Notes under the pieces: model-generated
Told to the model about the DNA's origin: nothing
What the model saw: the letters and a program-made list of their open reading frames with translations, nothing else
Databases searched by the model: none
Shown: positions 14,861-24,532 of the stretch, piece after piece
Position numbering within the stretch: position 1 is the first letter of the stretch
Layout: each line of letters opens with the position of its first letter
Source of the DNA: Candidatus Zixiibacteriota bacterium
GTDB lineage: Bacteria > Zixibacteria > MSB-5A5 > WJJR01
Assembly: GCA_046708665.1 (NCBI GenBank)
Contig: JBKKDE010000044.1
Coordinates: 1-24,532, forward strand
Direction of reading: 5' to 3'
DNA length: 24,532 nucleotides
Position numbers and translations under genes: made by a program

Positions 14861-14913
14861 TCGACGGCTATCCTACAGACTGACATTATAACGGCATCTG
14901 CCCAAAAAGACAA
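14861..14913. promoter_or_regulatory. Overlapping divergent promoters for rpsT and murJ
   Basis: Minus strand: TTGTCT(14913-14908)-17 bp-TATAAT(14890-14885). Plus strand: TCGACG(14861-14866)-17 bp-CATTAT(14884-14889), with an extended TGn. Confidence 0.6.
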
Positions 14914-16502
14914 TGACCAAAGACGCCCCCAGTGCAGCCCAAACCGAACTTGGGGCACGAGGATTCGCCCGTCAGACTCGGATCGTCTCGCTGGCGACAT
15001 TTGCTTCCCGTATCTTGGGCGTTGTCCGAGAACAGGTTATCGCGTACTACTTTGGCGCGGGTGCCGTCACCGATGCCTTCGTCGCTGCATTCCGAATCCC
15101 AAATCTGCTGCGGGACTTCCTGGCGGAGGGCGCATTCTCAGCCGCCTTCGTTCCAACTTTCTCGGAGGTGCTGACTAAGGAGGGACGGCCGGCGGCCATG
15201 GAGCTCCTGCGACGGGTCTTAGGAGTGTTCGTGCCATCGTTGGCGATCTTGTGCGTCCTGGGCATCGTTTTCACGCCTCAGATTGCTCAACTACTTTCCG
15301 GTGGTACGGAGCAGACACCCGGCAAGATCGAACTGCTCGTGCATCTCGCGCGCTGGATGTTTCCCTTCCTGCTTCTCATTGCGCTGGCGGCTGTCCTCAT
15401 GGGTGCACTCAACGCACTGGGAAAGTTTGGAATTCCCGCGCTCGCTCCGGCGGGGTTCAATATCGGAATGATACTCTGCGCGACGCTGCTTGCGAATCGC
15501 GTGAACCCACCGGTGCTAGCACTTGCGTGGGGTGTGCTTGCGGGAGGATTCCTGCAGTGGGCAGTGCAGGCGGTTGCCATCACGCGTGAAGGATTTGATC
15601 TTCGCATCCGGCTCATAGCCGGTTGGCGCGATTCACGCGTCCGGCAGATCGGGCGTCTGCTTGTGCCGGCTTTGCTTGGCCAAGCTGCGGTTCAGATTAA
15701 TATCCTCGCCATCACCCGTGCTGCTTGGCAGATGGGGGATGGCCCGGTGGCGTATCTGAATTTTGCATTCCGCATTTTGTTTGTCCCGCTTGGGGTATTT
15801 GCAGTCGCGGCGTCGACAGTGGGATTGGCGCGGCTCTCCAAACAGGTCGCCGAAGGTAATGAGGAGCAGGCCCGCGAGACCTTCCGTCAATCGCTGCAAA
15901 CTGTCCTCTTTCTCGTCACGCCCACCGCGATAGCTTTCCTCGCGCTGGGTGGCCCGATTTGCGCGGCTCTCTATCAGCGCGGGGAGTTTACGGCCCAAGC
16001 CGCGGAAAGTACCGCACGGGCTCTCGCGTTCTATGCGGTAGGTTTACCGGCAATGGCCGCCATTCGCGCCGTTACGCCCATATTCTTTGCGCATAAGGAC
16101 ACGAAAACGCCGACGTTATGCGGTGTCGCCGCAGTCGTCGCGAATCTCATCGGAATACTGTTCCTCACGGGGCCTTTGGGATACGCAGGCCTCGCACTAT
16201 CAGTTGCGTTGTCGTCGGTGTTGCAGGTCGGGATCCTTTTGATTGTCGCAGCGCGCAAATACAACACGACCGGGTATGGGATCGTAGCGGCGCACTGGAT
16301 CGGATTCATCGCAATCTCCGTCACCGCAGTTCTTGGTGGGAGATTCGCACTCGATGCCGGTTTGTTCGGCTGGATGCCATTCGGCGTGGTCGGACGCATA
16401 AGTCTGACACTCGCACTTGCAGCCCTGTTCTATCTGACTGTATCATGGCTACTTGGTTATCGAAATTTGGGGAGCCGTCGATCCTCGCGACGCATGCCGT
16501 AG
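14913..16502 (+). CDS. murJ: Lipid II flippase MurJ (MviN)
   Basis: SRILGVVRE, AFRIPNLLRDFLAEGAFSAAFVP, multiple TM segments, YQRGEF, FFAHKDTKTP; divergent from rpsT. Confidence 0.95.
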   Translation: MTKDAPSAAQTELGARGFARQTRIVSLATFASRILGVVREQVIAYYFGAGAVTDAFVAAFRIPNLLRDFLAEGAFSAAFVPTFSEVLTKEGRPAAMELLRRVLGVFVPSLAILCVLGIVFTPQIAQLLSGGTEQTPGKIELLVHLARWMFPFLLLIALAAVLMGALNALGKFGIPALAPAGFNIGMILCATLLANRVNPPVLALAWGVLAGGFLQWAVQAVAITREGFDLRIRLIAGWRDSRVRQIGRLLVPALLGQAAVQINILAITRAAWQMGDGPVAYLNFAFRILFVPLGVFAVAASTVGLARLSKQVAEGNEEQARETFRQSLQTVLFLVTPTAIAFLALGGPICAALYQRGEFTAQAAESTARALAFYAVGLPAMAAIRAVTPIFFAHKDTKTPTLCGVAAVVANLIGILFLTGPLGYAGLALSVALSSVLQVGILLIVAARKYNTTGYGIVAAHWIGFIAISVTAVLGGRFALDAGLFGWMPFGVVGRISLTLALAALFYLTVSWLLGYRNLGSRRSSRRMP

Positions 16503-16527
16503 CAACAATCGTCCACCGACTTGACGC

Positions 16528-18858
16528 ATGAACACCGTATCGAGCGCCGATACCCGTATCCGTTGGATCCCTGCTTCCATCGCACGCCACCCCGCACTAC
16601 TTGCCGCCGCCTGCATTTGCGTCGGAGTGTTCCTCGGCGATGCCATCGACATGAGTTCTGGGGCAATACTCGTTGCAACCGTGGTGCTGGGTATCGTCGG
16701 CCTTGTGGCTTCCCAATCCGTGATTCTCACGACACGGGTGGTTGGGGTGATTGCCGTCTGTGGGGCAATCGTCGCACTCGGGGCATGGCGCATTACCGTA
16801 ACGAACTCCGGTCGACCATCGCCATCACTGACCGAGCTGATCGCGTCAGGACGCCAAGTCAACATATTTGCACGCGTCGATGGTGTCCCTTATCAGAAGT
16901 CGAGCGGCTGGCGGCTTCCTCTTGAGTTACTGTCAGTCAAGAGCCCAAGCGGTAATCAGTCAATCGCTGGCCGCGTGCTCTTGACCTCGATAGCATCCCT
17001 GCACGGACTACAATTCGGCGATTACATACGCTTCGACGGTCGCGTTTTCGCGGCTTCGATCCAACGCAACCTCGGCGGGTTCGACTACGCCGAGTACCTG
17101 CACCGCCAAGGGTTCGACGCCACAGTCCGTCCGCAGTCGCCATTGTTAAAATGGCCACAGGACATGCACTGGTCGCTGTACAACATTGCCGACCCCGTCA
17201 GGCAATGGATTCGCGAAACATTTGCAAGAAGTCTGGACGATGACCCGCAGGCGCTACTCGTCGGGCTTCTACTTGGAGACACCGACCGGCTCCCCAAGCC
17301 GGTGTATGACGCGTTTCGAGAATCGGGTACGTCGCACCTGCTTGCGGTTTCGGGAGCCAATGTGTGGCTCGTTGTGGGGATGATTCTCCTGCCGATGTAT
17401 GCGTTTTCAGTTCCACGCTGGCCACGAACGATTATCGCGCTGATCGTCATCGTCTTCTTCAGTTTTCTCACACGCAATGAGCCCTCCGTGGTGAGAGCCT
17501 CTCTCATGGTTGGGCTGATTTTGGCGGGACGACTGATGTGGCGGCCGGTTGCTCCGTTAAACGCCGTGGGCGCGGCCGCGTTAATTATTCTGCTGCTGTC
17601 ACCGGCTCAACTCTTCCGACCCGGCTTTCAGTTGTCATTTGCTGCAGTGATTGGAATCATCATAGCTGTGAGACGTGTTGAGCCGAAGCTGCGGGGGATC
17701 TGGCGCACGCGCTTGGTCTACACGGTCGTTTTGTTCCTTGTCGCGTCGTTGGCTGCAACTGTTGCGACAGCCCCGATCTCAGCTTGGCATTTTGGAACAG
17801 TTCCTGTCGCGGGGCTTGTCTCAAATCTGCTAATGGTTCCTCTGGCCGGCATGACCGCGCACCTCGGCCTGTTGCTCTTGCCCCTCCAGGCTGCAACTTC
17901 GACAGGTTCGAGAGCACTTGCCGTGGCCATCGAATACTTGCTGCGGTTGTCCACGCACATCGCCCAACTGTTCGCTGATATGTCGTGGGCTACGCTTTCC
18001 TGGCCATCGCCCTCACTGTTGATTCTCGGTCACTTCGTATTGGTGATTTGCTTGATTCTCAACTGGCGTCATCGGTACAGTTGGTTCAGGCCTTTCGTCT
18101 ACTATGTCTGCATCTCGCTCACGGTGTTCGCAGCGGCTCGACTTAGCAACCCAACTTCGCCCGTCGCATCAATATCGCTCCTGGACACAGGTCGGCAACG
18201 AGTAGCAGTGCTCTCAACCAGCGCCGGGATGGCGGCTGGGACAATTGACGATCCGGGATTGGACGACGAGATCGACCAGTGGATAGTTCAGCCATTCCTG
18301 CGACACAAAACGGGTGAGCCCAAATTGGATGCTTGGACATCATGGCGACGGCTAGCCGATTCTCCCACGTTTCAGACGTACGGTTCCGATATCCGGCCAC
18401 AAATATGGAAGCGGTTCTACACTCACGAAGATCTCGACACTCTTGGCCGACCTCGAGTTTGGGCCGATTTATGGCCGACGGATTCAGCCGACATTCTTAT
18501 GATTCGTGATATTCCGACGATGCCGCTGCCGTTACTCCTCGCTGAGACGGGTACCACTCTACGCTCGCCAACCATAATTATCCCCTCGCAGGCAAAAGTC
18601 GGCTGGGTCCGTGAAGTGCTTGATAGATTACGTCCTACGAGCGTAGTCCTGTATGGTCGGTCGCGATTCGGAGAGGACCCAGAAGAGACACTCGCATTCT
18701 GGCGGCTACGCTTTCCTGAGGTTGAGTTCTATTCGTCCGCTGAATACGGCGGGATCACTCTCGATATCTTGCCGGGCCAGGCGACTCTTACCCACACTGT
18801 CTCAAGCCCGCCGAAATCCTATCGAATAAAGGTCTCGCACAATTCCCCGATAAAGTGA
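16528..18858 (+). CDS. comEC: ComEC/Rec2 DNA uptake channel with degenerate C-terminal metallo-beta-lactamase-like domain
   Basis: N-terminal TMs plus an OB-like region (LQFGDYIRFDG, GGFDYAEYL). Competence-domain motifs GTSHLLAVSGANV, PSVVRASLM, GFQLSFAAV. Confidence 0.9.
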   Translation: MNTVSSADTRIRWIPASIARHPALLAAACICVGVFLGDAIDMSSGAILVATVVLGIVGLVASQSVILTTRVVGVIAVCGAIVALGAWRITVTNSGRPSPSLTELIASGRQVNIFARVDGVPYQKSSGWRLPLELLSVKSPSGNQSIAGRVLLTSIASLHGLQFGDYIRFDGRVFAASIQRNLGGFDYAEYLHRQGFDATVRPQSPLLKWPQDMHWSLYNIADPVRQWIRETFARSLDDDPQALLVGLLLGDTDRLPKPVYDAFRESGTSHLLAVSGANVWLVVGMILLPMYAFSVPRWPRTIIALIVIVFFSFLTRNEPSVVRASLMVGLILAGRLMWRPVAPLNAVGAAALIILLLSPAQLFRPGFQLSFAAVIGIIIAVRRVEPKLRGIWRTRLVYTVVLFLVASLAATVATAPISAWHFGTVPVAGLVSNLLMVPLAGMTAHLGLLLLPLQAATSTGSRALAVAIEYLLRLSTHIAQLFADMSWATLSWPSPSLLILGHFVLVICLILNWRHRYSWFRPFVYYVCISLTVFAAARLSNPTSPVASISLLDTGRQRVAVLSTSAGMAAGTIDDPGLDDEIDQWIVQPFLRHKTGEPKLDAWTSWRRLADSPTFQTYGSDIRPQIWKRFYTHEDLDTLGRPRVWADLWPTDSADILMIRDIPTMPLPLLLAETGTTLRSPTIIIPSQAKVGWVREVLDRLRPTSVVLYGRSRFGEDPEETLAFWRLRFPEVEFYSSAEYGGITLDILPGQATLTHTVSSPPKSYRIKVSHNSPIK

Positions 18859-18911
18859 AAGGCCCCCGGAAGATAAGGCGGGTCAGGGAATCTCTTGGGC
18901 AGGAGAGCCGC

Positions 18912-20087
18912 ATGAGCTTTGCTGGGAATCTAAAAACGGTCGTTTTTGGCGATGTGCTGCAATTGATCTCGACCGGTCGCCGCACCGGGGCGCTGGTTCT
19001 CAATCGTCCCCATCGCGGCAAGAAAATTTACTTTCGAACGGGTGACATCATCGCTGCCTCGTCGGAGCCATCGACTGATGAGGAACGTCTGGGGCAAGTA
19101 TTGCTCCGCAAAGGGATGATCAGTGTCGAGGATCTGGAAAAGGCATTGAAGCGTCAAAAATCGACCGGACGACGCCTGGGTCAGATACTTGTCGAGCTCG
19201 GTACAATGAGCAAGGAAAGCATCACCGATGCACTGCGGCTTCAGGTCGAAGAGGTCGTCTACGGTGTATTTGGATGGAACGACGGCGACTTCCAGTTCGC
19301 AGAAGGGGAGAAGCCTGAGGCCTCCCAAATCTTGGTAGAACTGAACACGCTGTCTGTCATGATGGAAGGTGCCCGGCGCTTCGATGAGTACTCAGGAATC
19401 GCAAGCACTCTGCCAAACGAAGAGACAGTGCTGCGTTTTGTGCCTTCCCCGCATCTCAAGGATCCGGAGATTGTTCTGTCCGCCGAGGATATCGATGTCC
19501 TTTCTGGCGTCAATGGCCAGCGTTCCGTTGCTGAAGTCGTCGCCACGTCCTCGTATGGCGAGTACGCTGCCTCAAAGTCTCTTCATAAGCTCCTGACATC
19601 CCATCTCATCGAGCCCTGTCCGGACGTTGCCGTTGCGGTAAAACAGCGCGCCGATGAGGATGAACTGATCGCCTTCATTTTCAAGCTTCACGCCCATGCC
19701 TTGCTGACCATTCATGCCACGCTCAAAGAATACCTCGGACGCGCTGGAGATCGCCTCTACTTCCACATTCCCGCTCTATGCTACGATGACCCGTGGGATT
19801 TGGCTGCTCCGTTGATCGATGCCGACGGTGCGCGCTCGCAAGAGCTGTTTCGTGAACGCGTCTCGCGGATTCCGGGCCCAATCCGTCTCCACCGCTCAGT
19901 CGCTACGGCCCATGCCCTTGTTCATGAAGGGATGCGGACGGTCCGCGACACCCTGGGCGACACCGTCGCTCACAATGTGGCTGAGTCAACCAAACGTGAA
20001 CTCGCTGTGCTTCTGGCACAGAAGCGCGCGCTGGGAGACAAATACGACGTTCACAACGAATTCTTCGCAATTCTCAGGGGGAGATAG
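18912..20087 (+). CDS. DUF4388/PATAN-like protein with internal MshEN motif and wHTH-like segment
   Basis: AGGAG RBS and ATG 18912. DUF4388-type MSFAGNLKTVVFGDVLQLIS..RRTGAL and FGWNDGDFQF...MMEGARRFDE flank a tandem MshEN motif. LSGVNGQRSVAEV is wHTH-like. Confidence 0.8.
   Translation: MSFAGNLKTVVFGDVLQLISTGRRTGALVLNRPHRGKKIYFRTGDIIAASSEPSTDEERLGQVLLRKGMISVEDLEKALKRQKSTGRRLGQILVELGTMSKESITDALRLQVEEVVYGVFGWNDGDFQFAEGEKPEASQILVELNTLSVMMEGARRFDEYSGIASTLPNEETVLRFVPSPHLKDPEIVLSAEDIDVLSGVNGQRSVAEVVATSSYGEYAASKSLHKLLTSHLIEPCPDVAVAVKQRADEDELIAFIFKLHAHALLTIHATLKEYLGRAGDRLYFHIPALCYDDPWDLAAPLIDADGARSQELFRERVSRIPGPIRLHRSVATAHALVHEGMRTVRDTLGDTVAHNVAESTKRELAVLLAQKRALGDKYDVHNEFFAILRGR
19086..19244 (+). 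repeat. Tandem MshEN c-di-GMP-binding motif (2 x 24 aa, 5-aa linker)
   Basis: RLGQVLLRKGMISVEDLEKALKRQ-KSTGR-RLGQILVELGTMSKESITDALRLQ matches RLGxxLxxxGxxxxxxLxxxLxxQ twice with the canonical spacing. Confidence 0.88.
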
Positions 20088-20090
20088 TAC

Positions 20091-20480
20091 ATGAAATCGA
20101 TTCGATACATGCTCATGGTCTGCCTGGCCATTGTGTTCAGCGCAGCGACGGCGTTGGCGGATTCGCCGGCGACAACCACTTCTGAAAGCTCGTCGTTTCC
20201 GCCTGGTACTTTACTGCTTCAGGCCGTGGCCCTGCTCATCATCCTTGCATGTGTGCTTGTGGCATTCAAATTCTACACATCGATCAAGGGCGGTCGTGTT
20301 GGCCAAGGATGGATGTGGCTGTCCTGTGGACTGGTAGTATTTGCTGGTGCGCAACTGCTGCTCTTCGGCGGGCAGCTCGGGGTCCTGCCTCTTCTTATCA
20401 TCTGGGTCGATGTATTAAAAGTTGTGTCGCTCCTGCTGTTCTTCGTTGGCATCAACCAACTTCGCAAGATCATGGCCTGA
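20091..20480 (+). CDS. Small membrane protein (signal peptide plus about 3 TM helices), unknown function
   Basis: GGGGAG RBS, 3 bp after the previous stop. Signal peptide ending ALA|D, then three hydrophobic segments with a KGGRVGQGW loop. Confidence 0.75.
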   Translation: MKSIRYMLMVCLAIVFSAATALADSPATTTSESSSFPPGTLLLQAVALLIILACVLVAFKFYTSIKGGRVGQGWMWLSCGLVVFAGAQLLLFGGQLGVLPLLIIWVDVLKVVSLLLFFVGINQLRKIMA

Positions 20481-20714
20481 TGTACTCGGTCTGCATCCGT
20501 GCCGGGATTATTCCTCGTCCCGGCCATGGGATTTCTCCCATACCGACAATTCCAATCTCGGCCTCCGAAGACGGTTCCACGTGTGACCGTGCTGTGAGTC
20601 GGTGTTAAGACAACCGCCCTGTAGGTCGATATTAATAATTGTTCCAGGCACATAACCTCGCAGGGCGCTCAGCGCGGGGCATCATGTCGGACTGCACCTA
20701 AAATGAGGGCGATC

Positions 20715-21602
20715 ATGCTTAGCGTGGCGCAATTGGACGAACGCATCGAGAAGTGTCTGGCGATACTCGCCGACAACCCGCATTCACAAGTCTTCGCGGC
20801 ACTCGCGGATACATACCGCAAGCGTGGTGAGTTCGGACGCGCGTTCGCCGTTTGCAAGAGTGGGCTCAAGCACCATCCCGATTATGCACCCGCGCACATC
20901 GTGATGGCCAAGCTGTATCTGCATCAGGGCATGTTCCAAGACGCACTGAACTCGCTCAAGCATGCTGAGGCGCAGGATGGCGTTACACGAGCATCGGAAT
21001 TCCTGGAGGCTGAGACTCTCATCGGCGTGCACGACTTTGATGCCGCGCACGCGCTAATCGAAAGGCTCCGCGCCACCGATCGGAACAACCCAGACGTGCT
21101 TGAATTGCAAGCAAAACTCAAGGCGTCGCGGGTGGTCTCGCCGAAGCCAACAAGCGTCGACGACAGAGCACCAGGAGCGACAGATATCGAGCGAGCCACT
21201 GTGCCGGAGCCGGCGGACGCCGTAGAGTACGTTGACTGGACGATGTGGGCACTCGAGATAGCAAAGCTGCCGCATGTTCAGAAGGCCTTTGCAGTGGAAC
21301 TCAGCGACAAAGGAACAACTCCGTTCTCAGTGCTCGCAGAAGCTGGTCCTGGGCACGATGCCGCGGATACGGTCAGCATTTGCGTCGCGCTCTTTGCGTC
21401 ACTCGATTCCCAATGCCGGGCCAAAGGCATCGGCATCGTTGAAGAACTGCGCATTGAGCGTCCGGACGGCGAAATCTGGTGCCATCGTTCCAGCGGACGC
21501 CTCGTAGGATTTTCAGGTGGACACGGTCTCTCATACGGCGCGCTTCGCCAGAAGGCATTGGACGGTGCCGCGCGGGTCAACAGTTACGAAATGAGTCAGT
21601 GA
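20715..21602 (+). CDS. TPR protein with C-terminal degenerate Roadblock/LC7-like domain
   Basis: TPR-type helices FAALADTYRKRGEFGRAFAVCKSGLKHHPDYAPAHIVMAKLY. The C-terminal EIAKLPHVQKAFAV...GIVEELRIERPDGEIW...SYGALR follows the Roadblock secondary-structure pattern. ATG 20715 (GAGG RBS) or 20703. Confidence 0.7.
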   Translation: MLSVAQLDERIEKCLAILADNPHSQVFAALADTYRKRGEFGRAFAVCKSGLKHHPDYAPAHIVMAKLYLHQGMFQDALNSLKHAEAQDGVTRASEFLEAETLIGVHDFDAAHALIERLRATDRNNPDVLELQAKLKASRVVSPKPTSVDDRAPGATDIERATVPEPADAVEYVDWTMWALEIAKLPHVQKAFAVELSDKGTTPFSVLAEAGPGHDAADTVSICVALFASLDSQCRAKGIGIVEELRIERPDGEIWCHRSSGRLVGFSGGHGLSYGALRQKALDGAARVNSYEMSQ

Positions 21603-21609
21603 GGACGCC

Positions 21610-22566
21610 ATGACAGGGACGATTTCGCGAAAGACATCGTATACGCCAATTGTTCTGCGCCTGGCGATTTACTCCGCGCTGTTGGTCTTGGTACCTCTCG
21701 TGCTGTACCCGAGGGGGTTCGGATTCCCTGCGTTGGATCTCAATCCCGCGATCGGACTCTTGGAATGGGCCTTCTACGTTGCCGTGCTCAGTCTGTCCGC
21801 GTCACGGCTCCCCTTCTCAACCCGTGTAGTCGCCGCAGGCTTCACCGTGCTCTTCCGCTTCACGATCGGGGCTATTGCTGGTTGGCTTGTCGGATTTGCA
21901 CATGGCGTGCCACAGTCGGAGACTGTTGTTGGTATGATGTGGTCGTATCCTATGGCCTTGATCCCCCACGTGCTCTTTGCCGCGGTGATTACGAGCCCCT
22001 TATGGGAAAACCTGATGTCGACACAACCGTCGCGTCAGTCGCCCCGTGCAACGGGCCGTACCAAATTCGTGTCTCCGGCGCTGTCGCCATCGACAGTGCG
22101 CACCAATTCTCACAACGCCACGGCATCGCGTGTGGCCTCCGTTGCTGGCGCACTGAATCAAGAGCCGTCATTCGATGATGCAGTGTCTTATATCGGTGAG
22201 TACACCGGCGTTCGTTTGTGCTGGATCGTGGACCGCGATGGTCTTCCCATCGCTGTGTGGCAACGCCAAATGTATACCGGAGATGCCGACTTCTGGGCTC
22301 CCGTTTCAGTCGAAATGATCGATTTCCATAGACAGCGTCTGTCGACCGGGGGTGACGTTTGCCAACCCGATCGGCTCGAAGTGCGCACCAATCAAGGACG
22401 GCTGGTGGTGGAATCGGTTCGTGACGTGTGGCTCGGCGTGCTAACAGATCCCGACGCTGATGAGTTGATCAGCGTACGAATCACGCGCGCACGGGAAATG
22501 ATTGCGAAACATTTGCAAGCGGAGGGCGGACTGACCATAGCCGCCGGGGAGGTTCAATATGTTTAA
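21610..22566 (+). CDS. Membrane protein (about 4 TM) fused to a C-terminal Roadblock/LC7 domain
   Basis: Four hydrophobic segments in the first ~135 aa, then an S/T/P/R linker. From ~22168: GVRLCWIVDRDGLPIA...RLEVRTNQGRLVV...WLGVLTD, which is Roadblock-like. Confidence 0.75.
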   Translation: MTGTISRKTSYTPIVLRLAIYSALLVLVPLVLYPRGFGFPALDLNPAIGLLEWAFYVAVLSLSASRLPFSTRVVAAGFTVLFRFTIGAIAGWLVGFAHGVPQSETVVGMMWSYPMALIPHVLFAAVITSPLWENLMSTQPSRQSPRATGRTKFVSPALSPSTVRTNSHNATASRVASVAGALNQEPSFDDAVSYIGEYTGVRLCWIVDRDGLPIAVWQRQMYTGDADFWAPVSVEMIDFHRQRLSTGGDVCQPDRLEVRTNQGRLVVESVRDVWLGVLTDPDADELISVRITRAREMIAKHLQAEGGLTIAAGEVQYV

Positions 22567-22897
22567 GGAACTGGCTCAACTGAACAGGACCACAGGCGTG
22601 ACAGGCAGCATGCTTGTCGGACACGACGGAATCGTGATTGCAGCGGATCTCGACGAGAAAACTGACGACGACACTCTGGGAGCGTTGGCGTCTTCGATCG
22701 CGGCAACCGTGCGTCGGTCGATGACGGAACTCGGCGCTCATGAATTCGCGCAGATTACCGTCGAAGCGGACAATCAGAAAATCTTCCTGACCGATGCAGG
22801 TATCGGAACGCTGGTCGTCACGACCGAGCCCCGTGTAAACATCGGCCTCGTCCGTCTTGAGATTCGCAACACCATTGGCGCGTTCGCGCGCGCTTGA
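22559..22897 (+). CDS. Stand-alone Roadblock/LC7 protein (MglB/MglC-like)
   Basis: GVTGSMLVGHDGIVIA, LGALASSI, QITVEADNQKIFL, NIGLVRL. GGAGG RBS; 8-nt overlap with the upstream gene. Confidence 0.9.
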   Translation: MFKELAQLNRTTGVTGSMLVGHDGIVIAADLDEKTDDDTLGALASSIAATVRRSMTELGAHEFAQITVEADNQKIFLTDAGIGTLVVTTEPRVNIGLVRLEIRNTIGAFARA

Positions 22898-22937: not shown

Positions 22938-23915
22938 ATGGTTTCGATTAACTACGCCTTCCGCGAAATAAGCTGCAAGATCGTCTACTATGGTCCCGGC
23001 CTGTCCGGAAAGACGACGAACCTGCAGTACGTGCACGACCGCGTTCCCGCGAAGTCGCGCGGCGACCTCATCAGTCTCGCGACCGAGGCCGACCGTACTC
23101 TGTATTTCGACTTTCTGCCGATCCACGTAGGAGACATCGGGGGATTCTCGACCAAGTTCCAGCTCTACACAGTCCCTGGTCAGGTGTTCTACAACGCGAC
23201 GCGCAAGCTGGTTTTGCGCGGCGTGGATGGGATCGTCTTCGTTGCCGATTCACAGTTGGCCAAGATGGATGAAAATATTGAGTCGCTCGCGAACATGTAT
23301 GAAAATCTACGCGAAAACGACATCGATGTGCAAGCCATGCCGTTGGTGTTGCAGTACAACAAACGCGATCTGCCCGACATCGCATCAATTGAAGAACTCG
23401 AGAAGACGATCAATCCCGACGGCCGTCCCATTGTGGAGGCGAGTGCCGTCAAAGGCGTTGGTGTTTTCGATACGATGAAGCGAATTACCAAGCTCGTACT
23501 GGAAGACACAAAACGCAAAACATCCGGGCAACAGCCGTCGACTCCGACCGCGACCAAACCGACGACTCCGTCGGTGCCGATCGACGGCATGCTGACGTCA
23601 TCGGGCCCGGTGTCCGAGTTGCGGCAGTCAACAGCCGCACGCGCGGAGGACGGATGGAACACGGACCGCCATGGCGCGGGAGCCGCTGCGGTCGCGGTCG
23701 TTGAACCGGCAGCCGCATCAAAATCCACACGTGGGCCCATTGGCGTGTCAGCAGAAAGTTCACCGAGTTCAGAAGCCAGGATAGCAGGAACGGCTCACTC
23801 GACAACGCGCAACGATAATGCGGCGTCGGTTGTAACGGCCCAAAGAAGTACACGAATTCGTCGTCGTCAACGATCACTGTTCGATCGCCTCTTTGGCTGG
23901 CTGTTCGGACGTTAG
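22938..23915 (+). CDS. mglA: MglA-family small Ras-like GTPase with long C-terminal extension
   Basis: INYAFREISCKIVYYGPGLSGKTTNL (G1), DRTLYFDFLP (intrinsic Arg finger), TVPGQVFY (catalytic Gln), NKRD (G4). AAGGAG RBS and ATG 22938. 325 aa versus ~195 aa for M. xanthus MglA. Confidence 0.93.
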   Translation: MVSINYAFREISCKIVYYGPGLSGKTTNLQYVHDRVPAKSRGDLISLATEADRTLYFDFLPIHVGDIGGFSTKFQLYTVPGQVFYNATRKLVLRGVDGIVFVADSQLAKMDENIESLANMYENLRENDIDVQAMPLVLQYNKRDLPDIASIEELEKTINPDGRPIVEASAVKGVGVFDTMKRITKLVLEDTKRKTSGQQPSTPTATKPTTPSVPIDGMLTSSGPVSELRQSTAARAEDGWNTDRHGAGAAAVAVVEPAAASKSTRGPIGVSAESSPSSEARIAGTAHSTTRNDNAASVVTAQRSTRIRRRQRSLFDRLFGWLFGR

Positions 23916-23927
23916 AGGAGGTCTTGG

Positions 23928-24404
23928 ATGTCGTCAGGAGCTTATGTTTTATATGAAGATCAGATTGACCGCATCAACACAGCGCTCTTGCGCCTGTTGA
24001 AAAAGGCGGAAGCAAAGTGTGCCATCCTGGCGGATAAGGACGGGCACTTGATCACGCGCCAGGGATTCACCCAGTCACTGGATACAACGGCGTTGGCAGC
24101 GTTGCTCGCAGGCAGCTTTGCCTCCACCCGCGAGATCGCGCGGTTGGTTGGTGAGCCGGAATTCTCGGTCCTTTTTCACCAGGGAGTCCGCGATCACATT
24201 CACATCTGCCTGGTTGGAGAGCGTTGCATCCTGGCCATCGTGTTCGATGACCGAACGACGATCGGCATGGTGCGACTCTATGCCAAGGAGACCGCTGATC
24301 GACTGAAGGAGCTAACAACACCGGCGGCCGACGGCCGGGCTGACCTGTCGGACGATTTCTCGACCAGCGCCGGGGAGAAGATCGACAGCATGTTTAAGGA
24401 GTAG
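23928..24404 (+). CDS. mglB: MglB (Roadblock-family GAP for MglA)
   Basis: Closely resembles M. xanthus MglB from memory: LYEDQIDRIN, AILADKDGHLI, LDTTALAALLAG, LFHQG, IVFDDRTTIGMVRL, C-terminal IDSMFKE. AGGAGG RBS. Confidence 0.92.
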   Translation: MSSGAYVLYEDQIDRINTALLRLLKKAEAKCAILADKDGHLITRQGFTQSLDTTALAALLAGSFASTREIARLVGEPEFSVLFHQGVRDHIHICLVGERCILAIVFDDRTTIGMVRLYAKETADRLKELTTPAADGRADLSDDFSTSAGEKIDSMFKE

Positions 24405-24532
24405 GGCTCCGGGTGGTTCGGGTAGAGGCGCGAAGCTGGAATCGTACACATAATCGGCATGCGGTCATGACTCAAAAGACCAGGGATTGTAAATAACGTG
24501 TCGCAGGAACTAGGACACATGCTGGTGCAGGC

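Follow-up and report, generated by a model that had tools for sequence, protein, structure and literature searches.

The window analyzed here is a stretch of 24,532 nucleotides from a Candidatus Zixiibacteriota bacterium (contig JBKKDE010000044.1 of assembly GCA_046708665.1), read on the forward strand, and forms one entire contig of a metagenome-assembled genome of 2.37 Mb (81% completeness). At its center of interest is a gene on the forward strand (18912..20087, stop codon included) whose product, P0001, is a protein of 391 amino acids of the PATAN family (DUF4388); the assignment rests on the open reading frame and its translation, on Pfam, and on the N-termini of orthologues. Within its PATAN domain lies an alpha-clip that bears two repeats of the MshEN_N type, that is, the motif through which the ATPase MshE binds cyclic diguanosine monophosphate (c-di-GMP). 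The gene stands at the head of a cluster that leads through Roadblock-domain proteins to the small GTPase MglA, to MglB and to the type IV pilus motor gene pilB. An original prediction, made from the DNA of the window, held that P0001 is a non-enzymatic c-di-GMP receptor that could deliver second-messenger status to MglA: here the motif, the protein that carries it, and its genomic setting are described, and the prediction and its alternatives are weighed.

A tandem MshEN_N motif inside a PATAN-family protein

The motif sought comprises two 24-residue sequences of the form RLGxx(L/V/I)(L/V/I)xxG(L/V/I)(L/V/I)xxxxLxxxLxxQ, set five residues apart. P0001 holds exactly this arrangement on the forward strand: motif I (RLGQVLLRKGMISVEDLEKALKRQ) occupies 19086..19157, a linker of five residues (KSTGR) occupies 19158..19172, and motif II (RLGQILVELGTMSKESITDALRLQ), with Thr at position 11, occupies 19173..19244. 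Direct reading of the DNA and the translation give the same coordinates. The two 24-residue repeats, their five-residue separation, the RLG triplets, the central Gly, the Leu positions and the terminal Gln are thus all present where the original prediction had placed them (19086-19244): RLG, Gly10, Leu21 and Gln24 occur in both repeats. Departures from the strict consensus are few and mostly conservative – Met11 in repeat I, Met12 and Ile17 in repeat II – the sole non-conservative one being Thr11 in repeat II.

Profile searches point the same way. NCBIfam NF053729 ('c-di-GMP_motif, MshE-related'), which locates both motifs, matches aa 59-111 over 53 of its 53 positions (64.6 bits, E 5e-18; 68.2 bits in a genome-wide scan), against a curated cut-off of 38 bits. 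In a phmmer search of the PDB, aa 58-112 align with aa 8-62 of Vibrio cholerae MshE (5HTL; E 1.4e-7), and P0001 also aligns with the GSPII domains that recur in Thermus PilF (E 5.8e-18), as well as with Myxococcus xanthus PilB. The tandem motif far exceeds what chance would produce.

DUF4388/PATAN (PF14332; 112.8 bits, cut-off 25) is the only Pfam match of P0001: neither Pfam nor NCBIfam profiles reveal a REC, ATPase, GGDEF, EAL or PilZ domain, in keeping with the expectation that the reading frame would lack both an ATPase and a REC domain. The PF14332 match is split (profile positions 1-74 and 48-120), because the profile holds one helix hairpin, whereas the clip of P0001 holds two. In an AlphaFold2 model that draws on 40 orthologues (mean pLDDT, the predicted local distance difference test, 85) the alpha-clip lies between strands of the PATAN beta-core (aa 1-52 and 126-165 as modeled; the segments listed here take it as aa 1-56 and 121-168). 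The N-terminal half of that core (aa 1-56; 18912..19079, forward strand, as are all segments that follow) consists of a strand, a helix and three strands, and is delimited by the first PF14332 segment, by the model, and by a Foldseek match to PatA (P39048). It is succeeded by the alpha-clip (aa 57-120; 19080..19271), an MshEN_N-type four-helix bundle recognized by NF053729, phmmer, the model and superposition, and by the C-terminal half of the core (aa 121-168; 19272..19415), a strand and a long helix identified by the second PF14332 segment and the model. An acidic winged-helix domain (aa 169-236; 19416..19619; model, comparisons with the aligner VIA, and isoelectric point) and then a helical bundle specific to the family (aa 237-391; 19620..20084; model, lack of a Pfam match, and an HMMER search) complete the protein. 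The winged helix-turn-helix-like segment and helical C-terminal domain that had been proposed correspond to these two parts of the model (aa ~170-236 and aa 237-391).

The four helices of the modeled clip (aa 60-120) superpose on c-di-GMP-bound MshE (5HTL) with a root-mean-square deviation (rmsd) of 0.6 Å over 53 columns (45% identity), and the clip superposes on the c-di-GMP-bound GSPII-B domain of PilF (8PDK/8PFA) with an rmsd of 0.9 Å (49-51% identity). VIA, an independent aligner, also finds the clip superposable (Z 7.0), the P0001 side of the comparison being a predicted model. Over a longer reach, Foldseek aligns the P0001 model with models of Nostoc PatA (P39048; E 1.6e-4, aa 3-190) and of Aquifex aq_1845 (E 2.7e-9), and many representatives annotated as DUF4388 or 'PatA-like N-terminal', together with clusters from the ESM Atlas, align over about aa 1-240 at 3-5 Å, predicted models throughout. 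PATAN core, clip and winged helix therefore constitute a common module.

The isoelectric point (pI) of the winged helix is 4.9 in the window copy and 4.2-6.1 in all 21 orthologues compared, with a net charge of about -4. Its top VIA matches (Z 5-7) are peptide- or protein-binding winged helices – the RRE of MccB (3H5A) and GATOR1 – together with MecI: the domain is probably a protein-binding rather than a DNA-binding module. The C-terminal bundle has no Pfam match and no usable feature match in the ESM Atlas, and its structural matches are helical bundles alone, with uninformative Z. An exhaustive HMMER search with aa 166-391 against 1.84 billion cluster representatives matched 35 proteins, nearly all of them ~390 aa long with the segment at the C-terminus as in P0001, the remainder being fragments and a few longer proteins; by this sequence measure the bundle is specific to the family.

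A further likeness was recorded. The model (aa 1-340) bears a weak resemblance to NPRL2/NPRL3 of GATOR1 and to the SEA complex (Foldseek probability 0.14-0.33), which according to VIA (Z 6.5-6.8) is confined to the winged helix and is too weak to serve as a foundation. The likeness is nonetheless suggestive in that GATOR1 and SEA proteins regulate Rag GTPases, which dock on the Roadblock-domain Ragulator.

Conservation of the predicted binding site

Conservation was assessed residue by residue in 21 orthologues from across the phylum. In MshE the backbone amides at Gly3 of each repeat read the guanine, and substitution of this residue abolishes binding; substitutions at the hydrophobic (Leu) positions cost more than 10-fold in binding (PMC5013675). 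Gly3 of motif I (G61) is kept in 21 of the 21 orthologues, Gly3 of motif II (G90) in 20, and Gln24 of motif II (Q111) again in all 21, while the Leu/hydrophobic positions are retained in at least 90%. Within the order that the window belongs to, repeats I and II are both fully canonical. When ten diverse orthologues were scored with NF053729, nine exceeded the cut-off (43.6-55.6 bits). Position 11 of the repeat varies freely among orthologues (L/I/V/T/M/F/N/A/Y), and the essential Gly3 and Leu residues are intact: the concern that Thr-Met in repeat II might lower affinity thus loses most of its force, and Thr11 would seem a minor risk to the predicted binding.

Other observations weigh against binding. 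Arg1 of motif I is replaced by Leu in 14 of the 21 orthologues and Gln24 of the same motif by His in 12; Arg1 of motif II gives way to Gln, Ala or Pro in eight and to Lys in another six; and Gly10 of motif II is Asn, Glu, Asp, Lys, His or Gln in 15. With the polar contacts drifting in this manner, the kept Gly and Leu residues could reflect maintenance of the fold alone. Precedents exist: GSPII-A of PilF has a near-consensus motif and does not bind, and restoration of the consensus alone gave no rescue (PMC12002112), from which it follows that binding cannot be proved from sequence alone; XpsE, too, has lost c-di-GMP binding. The surrounding PATAN domain could moreover occlude the binding face of the clip. 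No c-di-GMP binding experiment on any PATAN clip was found in the literature searched, and the P0001 sequence was present solely in DNA metagenomes (freshwater sediment and soil), with no RNA run among them.

One of these substitutions is readily accommodated. The K167L variant of PilF GSPII-B binds with a dissociation constant of 2 nM, which extends the consensus to (R/K/L)LG, and in PilF the position-1 Arg is dispensable, Leu at this position being even beneficial (PMC11731258). By analogy, Leu in place of Arg1 of motif I fits the extended consensus and would be compatible with binding.

In the genome to which the window belongs GGDEF is matched four times, in one case in fusion with EAL (the single EAL match), and PilZ once; GGDEF matches number 3-5 in each of the relatives (20 of 20 genomes checked). 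Judged by these domains the genome can both make and break c-di-GMP. Within the cluster itself the highest NF053729 score belongs to the PATAN protein (64.6 bits, vs 45.2 for PilB). Repeat I of the cluster PilB begins ELG, and repeat II begins K-F/L-A/S/T/E: Gly3 of motif II is missing from 21 of the 26 loci compared (L001-L005 and L020-L040) and kept in five. By these comparisons the PATAN protein is the best candidate for a c-di-GMP sensor in the cluster, its better retention of Gly being an added point, and it may sense in trans on behalf of a motor whose own site has been lost.

The genome encodes other proteins with MshEN features. Its top NF053729 motif (76.4 bits) is that of another PilB-like ATPase, encoded on contig C386. 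On contig C70 (L019:495-2594, forward strand) lies the gene for a second MshEN/PATAN protein, 699 aa long, which has a full MshEN domain at the N-terminus (NF053729, 49.2 bits; PF05157), a faint match to an HD-GYP-type response-regulator phosphodiesterase family in its middle (aa 374-446), and a C-terminal PATAN domain (aa 582-680), which, being a single match of 99 residues, probably lacks the double clip. This protein resembles the MshEN-HD-GYP-REC-DUF4388 architecture listed for MXAN_2809 by Wang et al. (PMC5013675).

Gene order and neighboring genes

The ATG at 18912 is taken as the true start of the PATAN gene because a Shine-Dalgarno sequence, GGAG (18902..18905, forward strand; read directly from the DNA), lies 6 nt ahead of it and because Met occupies the aligned start position in 39 of 40 aligned orthologues, the majority of which open with MSFAGNLKTV or a near variant. 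A longer frame from a GTG at 18855 was considered and dropped: orthologue N-termini and Shine-Dalgarno placement both speak for 18912. Scans for promoters and terminators around the gene gave none that exceeded the shuffled background, and an Rfam scan of the window produced no match, a c-di-GMP riboswitch in the 222-nt gap at 20481-20702 included.

The genes that follow all lie on the forward strand. Three nucleotides past the PATAN stop, the list of open reading frames gives a small membrane protein of 129 aa (20091..20480) with a signal-like N-terminus and hydrophobic helices; in five metagenomic loci its counterpart begins -4 to +22 nt from the PATAN gene and diverges rapidly in sequence, and it is a possible membrane partner or anchor of the PATAN protein. 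There follow a TPR protein (20703..21602; Pfam), for which a Roadblock-like C-terminus is weakly suggested (the L005 orthologue has a weak Robl_LC7 match), a membrane protein with a Roadblock-like C-terminal domain (21610..22566; a weak Robl_LC7 match) and a free Roadblock/LC7 protein (22559..22897; PF03259, E 3.6e-15). The Mgl genes come next, downstream of the PATAN gene as the original prediction had it: an MglA orthologue (22938..23915), which aligns with M. xanthus MglA (5YMX) over aa 3-193 (E 3e-75) and carries a C-terminal tail of ~130 aa, and MglB (23928..24404; E 1.6e-32 to M. xanthus 6IZW_B). The MglA tail is of low complexity and ends in a basic and hydrophobic stretch. MglA measures 318-366 aa in the orthologous loci, vs about 195 aa in M. 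xanthus, and the tail is therefore conserved in the phylum.

The last feature is the 5' end of pilB (24498..24532), cut by the end of the contig and continued on contig C358. The window ends 128 nt past mglB, and its last 253 nt (24280-24532) are the reverse complement of the end of C358 (246 of 253 positions), a contig that carries PilB (TIGR02538, 710 bits, over the cut-off), PilT and PilC: pilB, pilT and pilC therefore follow mglB in the genome of the window also. The break between the two contigs resembles strain variation in the assembly. The ATG that begins pilB on C358 is ATT in the window copy, where the GTG at 24498 then becomes the first possible start.

Of the 201 phylum genomes sampled, 200 yielded a full-length orthologue of P0001 (aa 1-389 covered at 32-84% identity), as did 178 of the 179 of high quality. 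Gene order was compared in 25 loci: five metagenomic loci and 20 genomes from 15 GTDB families. The order PATAN, small membrane protein, TPR, membrane Roadblock fusion, Roadblock, MglA, MglB, PilB is identical in 25 of 25, with the small membrane protein at its place in all five metagenomic loci and detectable by tblastn in eight of the 20 genome loci. PilT comes next in 23 of the 25 – in the other two (L032 and L039) the sole PilT match fell inside the PilB coordinates – and PilC follows in all five metagenomic loci, which are those in which it was queried. Co-occurrence with mglA clusters had been put forward as a check on the prediction, and the linkage to mglAB held in every locus; orthologues unlinked to mglAB, the outcome named as refuting the prediction, were clearly not what was seen.

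On the other side of the PATAN gene, murJ and comEC (14913-18858) lie upstream in the window and in each of the four loci with enough flank; comEC always adjoins the PATAN gene directly, in the window and in L001-L004. This position ties the pilus/Mgl genes to a gene for a DNA-uptake channel, and the output of the system may accordingly lie in DNA uptake no less than in twitching. Source labels of the relatives are mostly Zixibacteria, with some given as Acidobacteriota or 'uncultured Ignavibacteria bacterium'.

A related arrangement occurs in Gemmatimonadota. In a Longimicrobiales metagenome-assembled genome (L006, 8001-14866) two PATAN-TPR proteins flank Roadblock-Roadblock-MglA-like genes and a gene for a DnaA-like ATPase, in the setting of a Che operon. 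Both proteins exceed the NF053729 cut-off of 38 (52.5 and 44.4 bits), and no pilB was called within the ~17-kb locus read.

Proposed mechanism and comparison with known systems

The reading that we favor – with moderate rather than high confidence – is that the clip binds one molecule of c-di-GMP between its hairpins, in the manner of MshE, and that occupancy alters engagement of the partners encoded downstream. P0001 would be a cytoplasmic, non-enzymatic adaptor of the PATAN family, whose alpha-clip, as an intact MshEN_N module, would use its two helix hairpins jointly to clamp a c-di-GMP monomer. If MshE is a guide, the backbone amides near Gly3, together with the Leu/Ile triad, would grip each guanine, and the position-1 Arg would stack on its base. 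Because the clip is spliced between PATAN strands, and these are followed by the winged helix and the bundle, we propose that ligand binding re-orients clip, PATAN core, winged helix and bundle relative to one another and so changes which partner is bound. The partner would likely be found among the products of the constant downstream genes: the small membrane protein, whose gene is tightly coupled; MglA/MglB in company with the TPR and Roadblock proteins; and/or PilB and PilC, through their N-termini. The level of c-di-GMP would in this manner be linked to the place at which the type IV pilus motor works, or to its working at all, be it in twitching, adhesion or DNA uptake.

For the receptor itself, then, the original prediction has good computational support: the profile score, a predicted fold superposable on MshE and PilF in their ligand-bound forms, retention of the essential residues, and the c-di-GMP enzymes of the genome all favor it, binding being what sequence and model predict. 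The step from receptor to MglA stands less firmly. Linkage to mglAB, seen in 25 of 25 loci, is as firm as gene order can make it, but PilB, PilT and PilC share the cluster, and synteny for this reason cannot show that the signal enters the MglA switch, nor name MglA as the target. Published precedents point in two directions. In Synechocystis PATAN domains bind PilB1's N-terminus as well as PilC's N-terminal domain, which are the only PATAN partners known from experiment (bioRxiv 10.1101/2021.06.11.447907), and PATAN genes elsewhere adjoin mglA and mglB (PMC4316618). By analogy, experimental precedent would indicate the N-termini of PilB and PilC, and comparative precedent MglA, MglB and the Roadblock proteins.

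It is conceivable, if on balance unlikely, that the PATAN protein is a c-di-GMP receptor which acts directly and solely on the PilB/PilC motor, sensing in trans as FimX/PilZ or PATAN-REC proteins do, with MglA/MglB as a parallel polarity input. Such a receptor falls within the favored explanation as one variant of it, and is a rival to the idea of an input to the MglA switch. It draws strength from PilB1 and PilC being the sole partners shown by experiment, from the decay of the cluster PilB site described above (Glu at position 1 of motif I; Gly3 of motif II gone from most loci), and from the pilus genes that lie downstream of mglAB throughout (pilB in 25 of 25 loci, pilT in 23 of 25, pilC in the five metagenomic loci). 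The Gemmatimonadota locus speaks against it: there, PATAN-TPR proteins with motifs over the cut-off flank Roadblock-Roadblock-MglA-like genes and no pilB was called, which furnishes an argument of its own for a link between PATAN and Mgl proteins.

A second alternative, which we regard as rather improbable, dispenses with the ligand: the alpha-clip would be a structural or protein-interaction module that imitates PilB's N-terminus and docks on a shared partner such as PilC or PilM, making P0001 a constitutive scaffold for pilus and Mgl proteins. Mimicry or competition was proposed by Han et al., on the ground that the clip is similar to the opening part of PilB's N1 domain (bioRxiv 10.1101/2021.06.11.447907); MshEN-like bundles that do not bind are exemplified by PilF GSPII-A and XpsE, and Arg1 and Gln24 of motif I and Gly10 of motif II are unconserved across the phylum. 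Yet the window copy is canonical in both repeats and has the top profile score of the cluster, Gly3 of both motifs and Gln24 of motif II vary hardly or not at all, and a Gly at the start of a helix is not obviously needed for a four-helix bundle; the position-1 Leu, moreover, improves binding in PilF (PMC11731258). That P0001 is instead a c-di-GMP-responsive transcription factor, its winged helix on DNA and the downstream operon under its control, is very improbable: the winged-helix fold of the model (aa 170-236), its matches to MecI and Nur, and the label 'predicted transcriptional regulator' that JGI gives to orthologues P0012 and P0036 would suit it, but the domain is acidic in every orthologue – on which ground a DNA-binding role was rejected – its best structural matches, at middling Z, are to peptide- and protein-binding winged helices (MccB RRE, GATOR1), and no DNA-binding Pfam family matched.

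Returning to a clip that binds c-di-GMP, a wider and decidedly speculative scenario can be drawn, which we think doubtful. PilB of the phylum would have largely lost its MshEN site and sensing would have been handed to the PATAN-clip protein, as a ligand-gated coupler between a membrane-tethered MglA/MglB/Roadblock switch and PilB/PilC; more widely, PATAN clips would be the missing c-di-GMP input to MglA-type GTPases in phyla that lack RomR.

Most genomes have many fewer receptors for c-di-GMP than c-di-GMP enzymes, and the route by which c-di-GMP reaches polarity GTPases and pilus motors is only partly understood. Should PATAN clips bind c-di-GMP, a large DUF family spread over many phyla – the phototaxis regulators of cyanobacteria and motility proteins of Myxococcus among them – would become second-messenger sensors, and the Zixibacteria cluster would display, in compact form, the full circuit of messenger, adaptor, small GTPase and pilus motor. 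The window copy, canonical in both repeats, is a clean and well-preserved example of a phylum-wide protein, and a good construct for work on binding and structure, the organism itself being uncultured.

Several components of this picture were already known. Makarova, Koonin, Haselkorn and Galperin (2006), as far as their work is summarized in a later preprint (bioRxiv 10.1101/2021.06.11.447907), described the alpha-clip as two repeated helix hairpins that are found also at the start of the ATPases of type II secretion systems and type IV pili. Wang et al. (2016) listed the PATAN protein MXAN_3211, with the motif at ~aa 57, as a predicted c-di-GMP-binding MshEN protein (PMC5013675). Bd2402 of Bdellovibrio, a REC-MshEN_N-UNK protein for which c-di-GMP binding was demonstrated by experiment, may be a PATAN-clip protein too, in which case it would provide a direct precedent. 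The likeness of the clip to the start of PilB-type ATPases, the prediction for MXAN_3211, the linkage of PATAN to MglA/MglB, and the curated NCBI motif model all precede this analysis.

The nearest relatives of the clip are MshE (5HTL; PMC5013675) and GSPII-B of Thermus thermophilus PilF (8PDK; PMC11731258), which have the same two 24-residue repeats, the same five-residue joint and the same four-helix bundle (45-51% identity). In P0001, however, the bundle lies inside a PATAN beta-core, whereas theirs heads a T2SSE ATPase; the MshEN_C/T2SSE_N1 subdomain, a source of contacts and affinity in PilF, is missing; and repeat II carries Thr11, binding by P0001 being predicted from its sequence. Pfam finds neither PF05157 nor PF00437 in P0001, which is to say no full MshEN domain, and by its sequence the protein belongs to the class that Wang et al. 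call 'MshEN_N only' (PMC5013675, Supplementary Table 4). By each criterion of sequence and predicted fold that could be applied, P0001 is a member both of the PATAN family and of this receptor class.

Among PATAN alpha-clip proteins – PixG, PixE and LsiR of Synechocystis, MXAN_3211 and SgnC of M. xanthus – PF14332, the fold of aa 1-240, the two-hairpin clip, and a genomic link to mglA/mglB and to genes of the type IV pilus are shared with P0001. Unlike these proteins, P0001 ends in a helical bundle that is almost restricted to its own orthologues, and its motif is more canonical than that of MXAN_3211 (FFG...FLG in the published alignment; PMC5013675, supplement). Nor is it a response regulator of the PatA type (PATAN-REC): there is no Response_reg match, and the C-terminus is formed by winged helix and bundle. 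The PATAN-TPR proteins of Gemmatimonadota have TPR repeats where P0001 has its bundle, and belong to a Che operon.

The closest functional parallel is CdgA of Bdellovibrio, a degenerate GGDEF protein at a hub of RomR, the TPR protein Bd2492 and MglA (PMC3983030), which is likewise a non-enzymatic c-di-GMP receptor at an MglA/TPR hub controlling type IV pili. Fold and binding mode are unrelated (a GGDEF I-site vs MshEN_N), and the interactions of CdgA are experimental, whereas those of P0001 are predicted. The proposal that P0001 fills the input role of RomR or CdgA thus holds as a functional analogy and not as homology: P0001 has neither the REC domain of RomR nor the GGDEF domain of CdgA.

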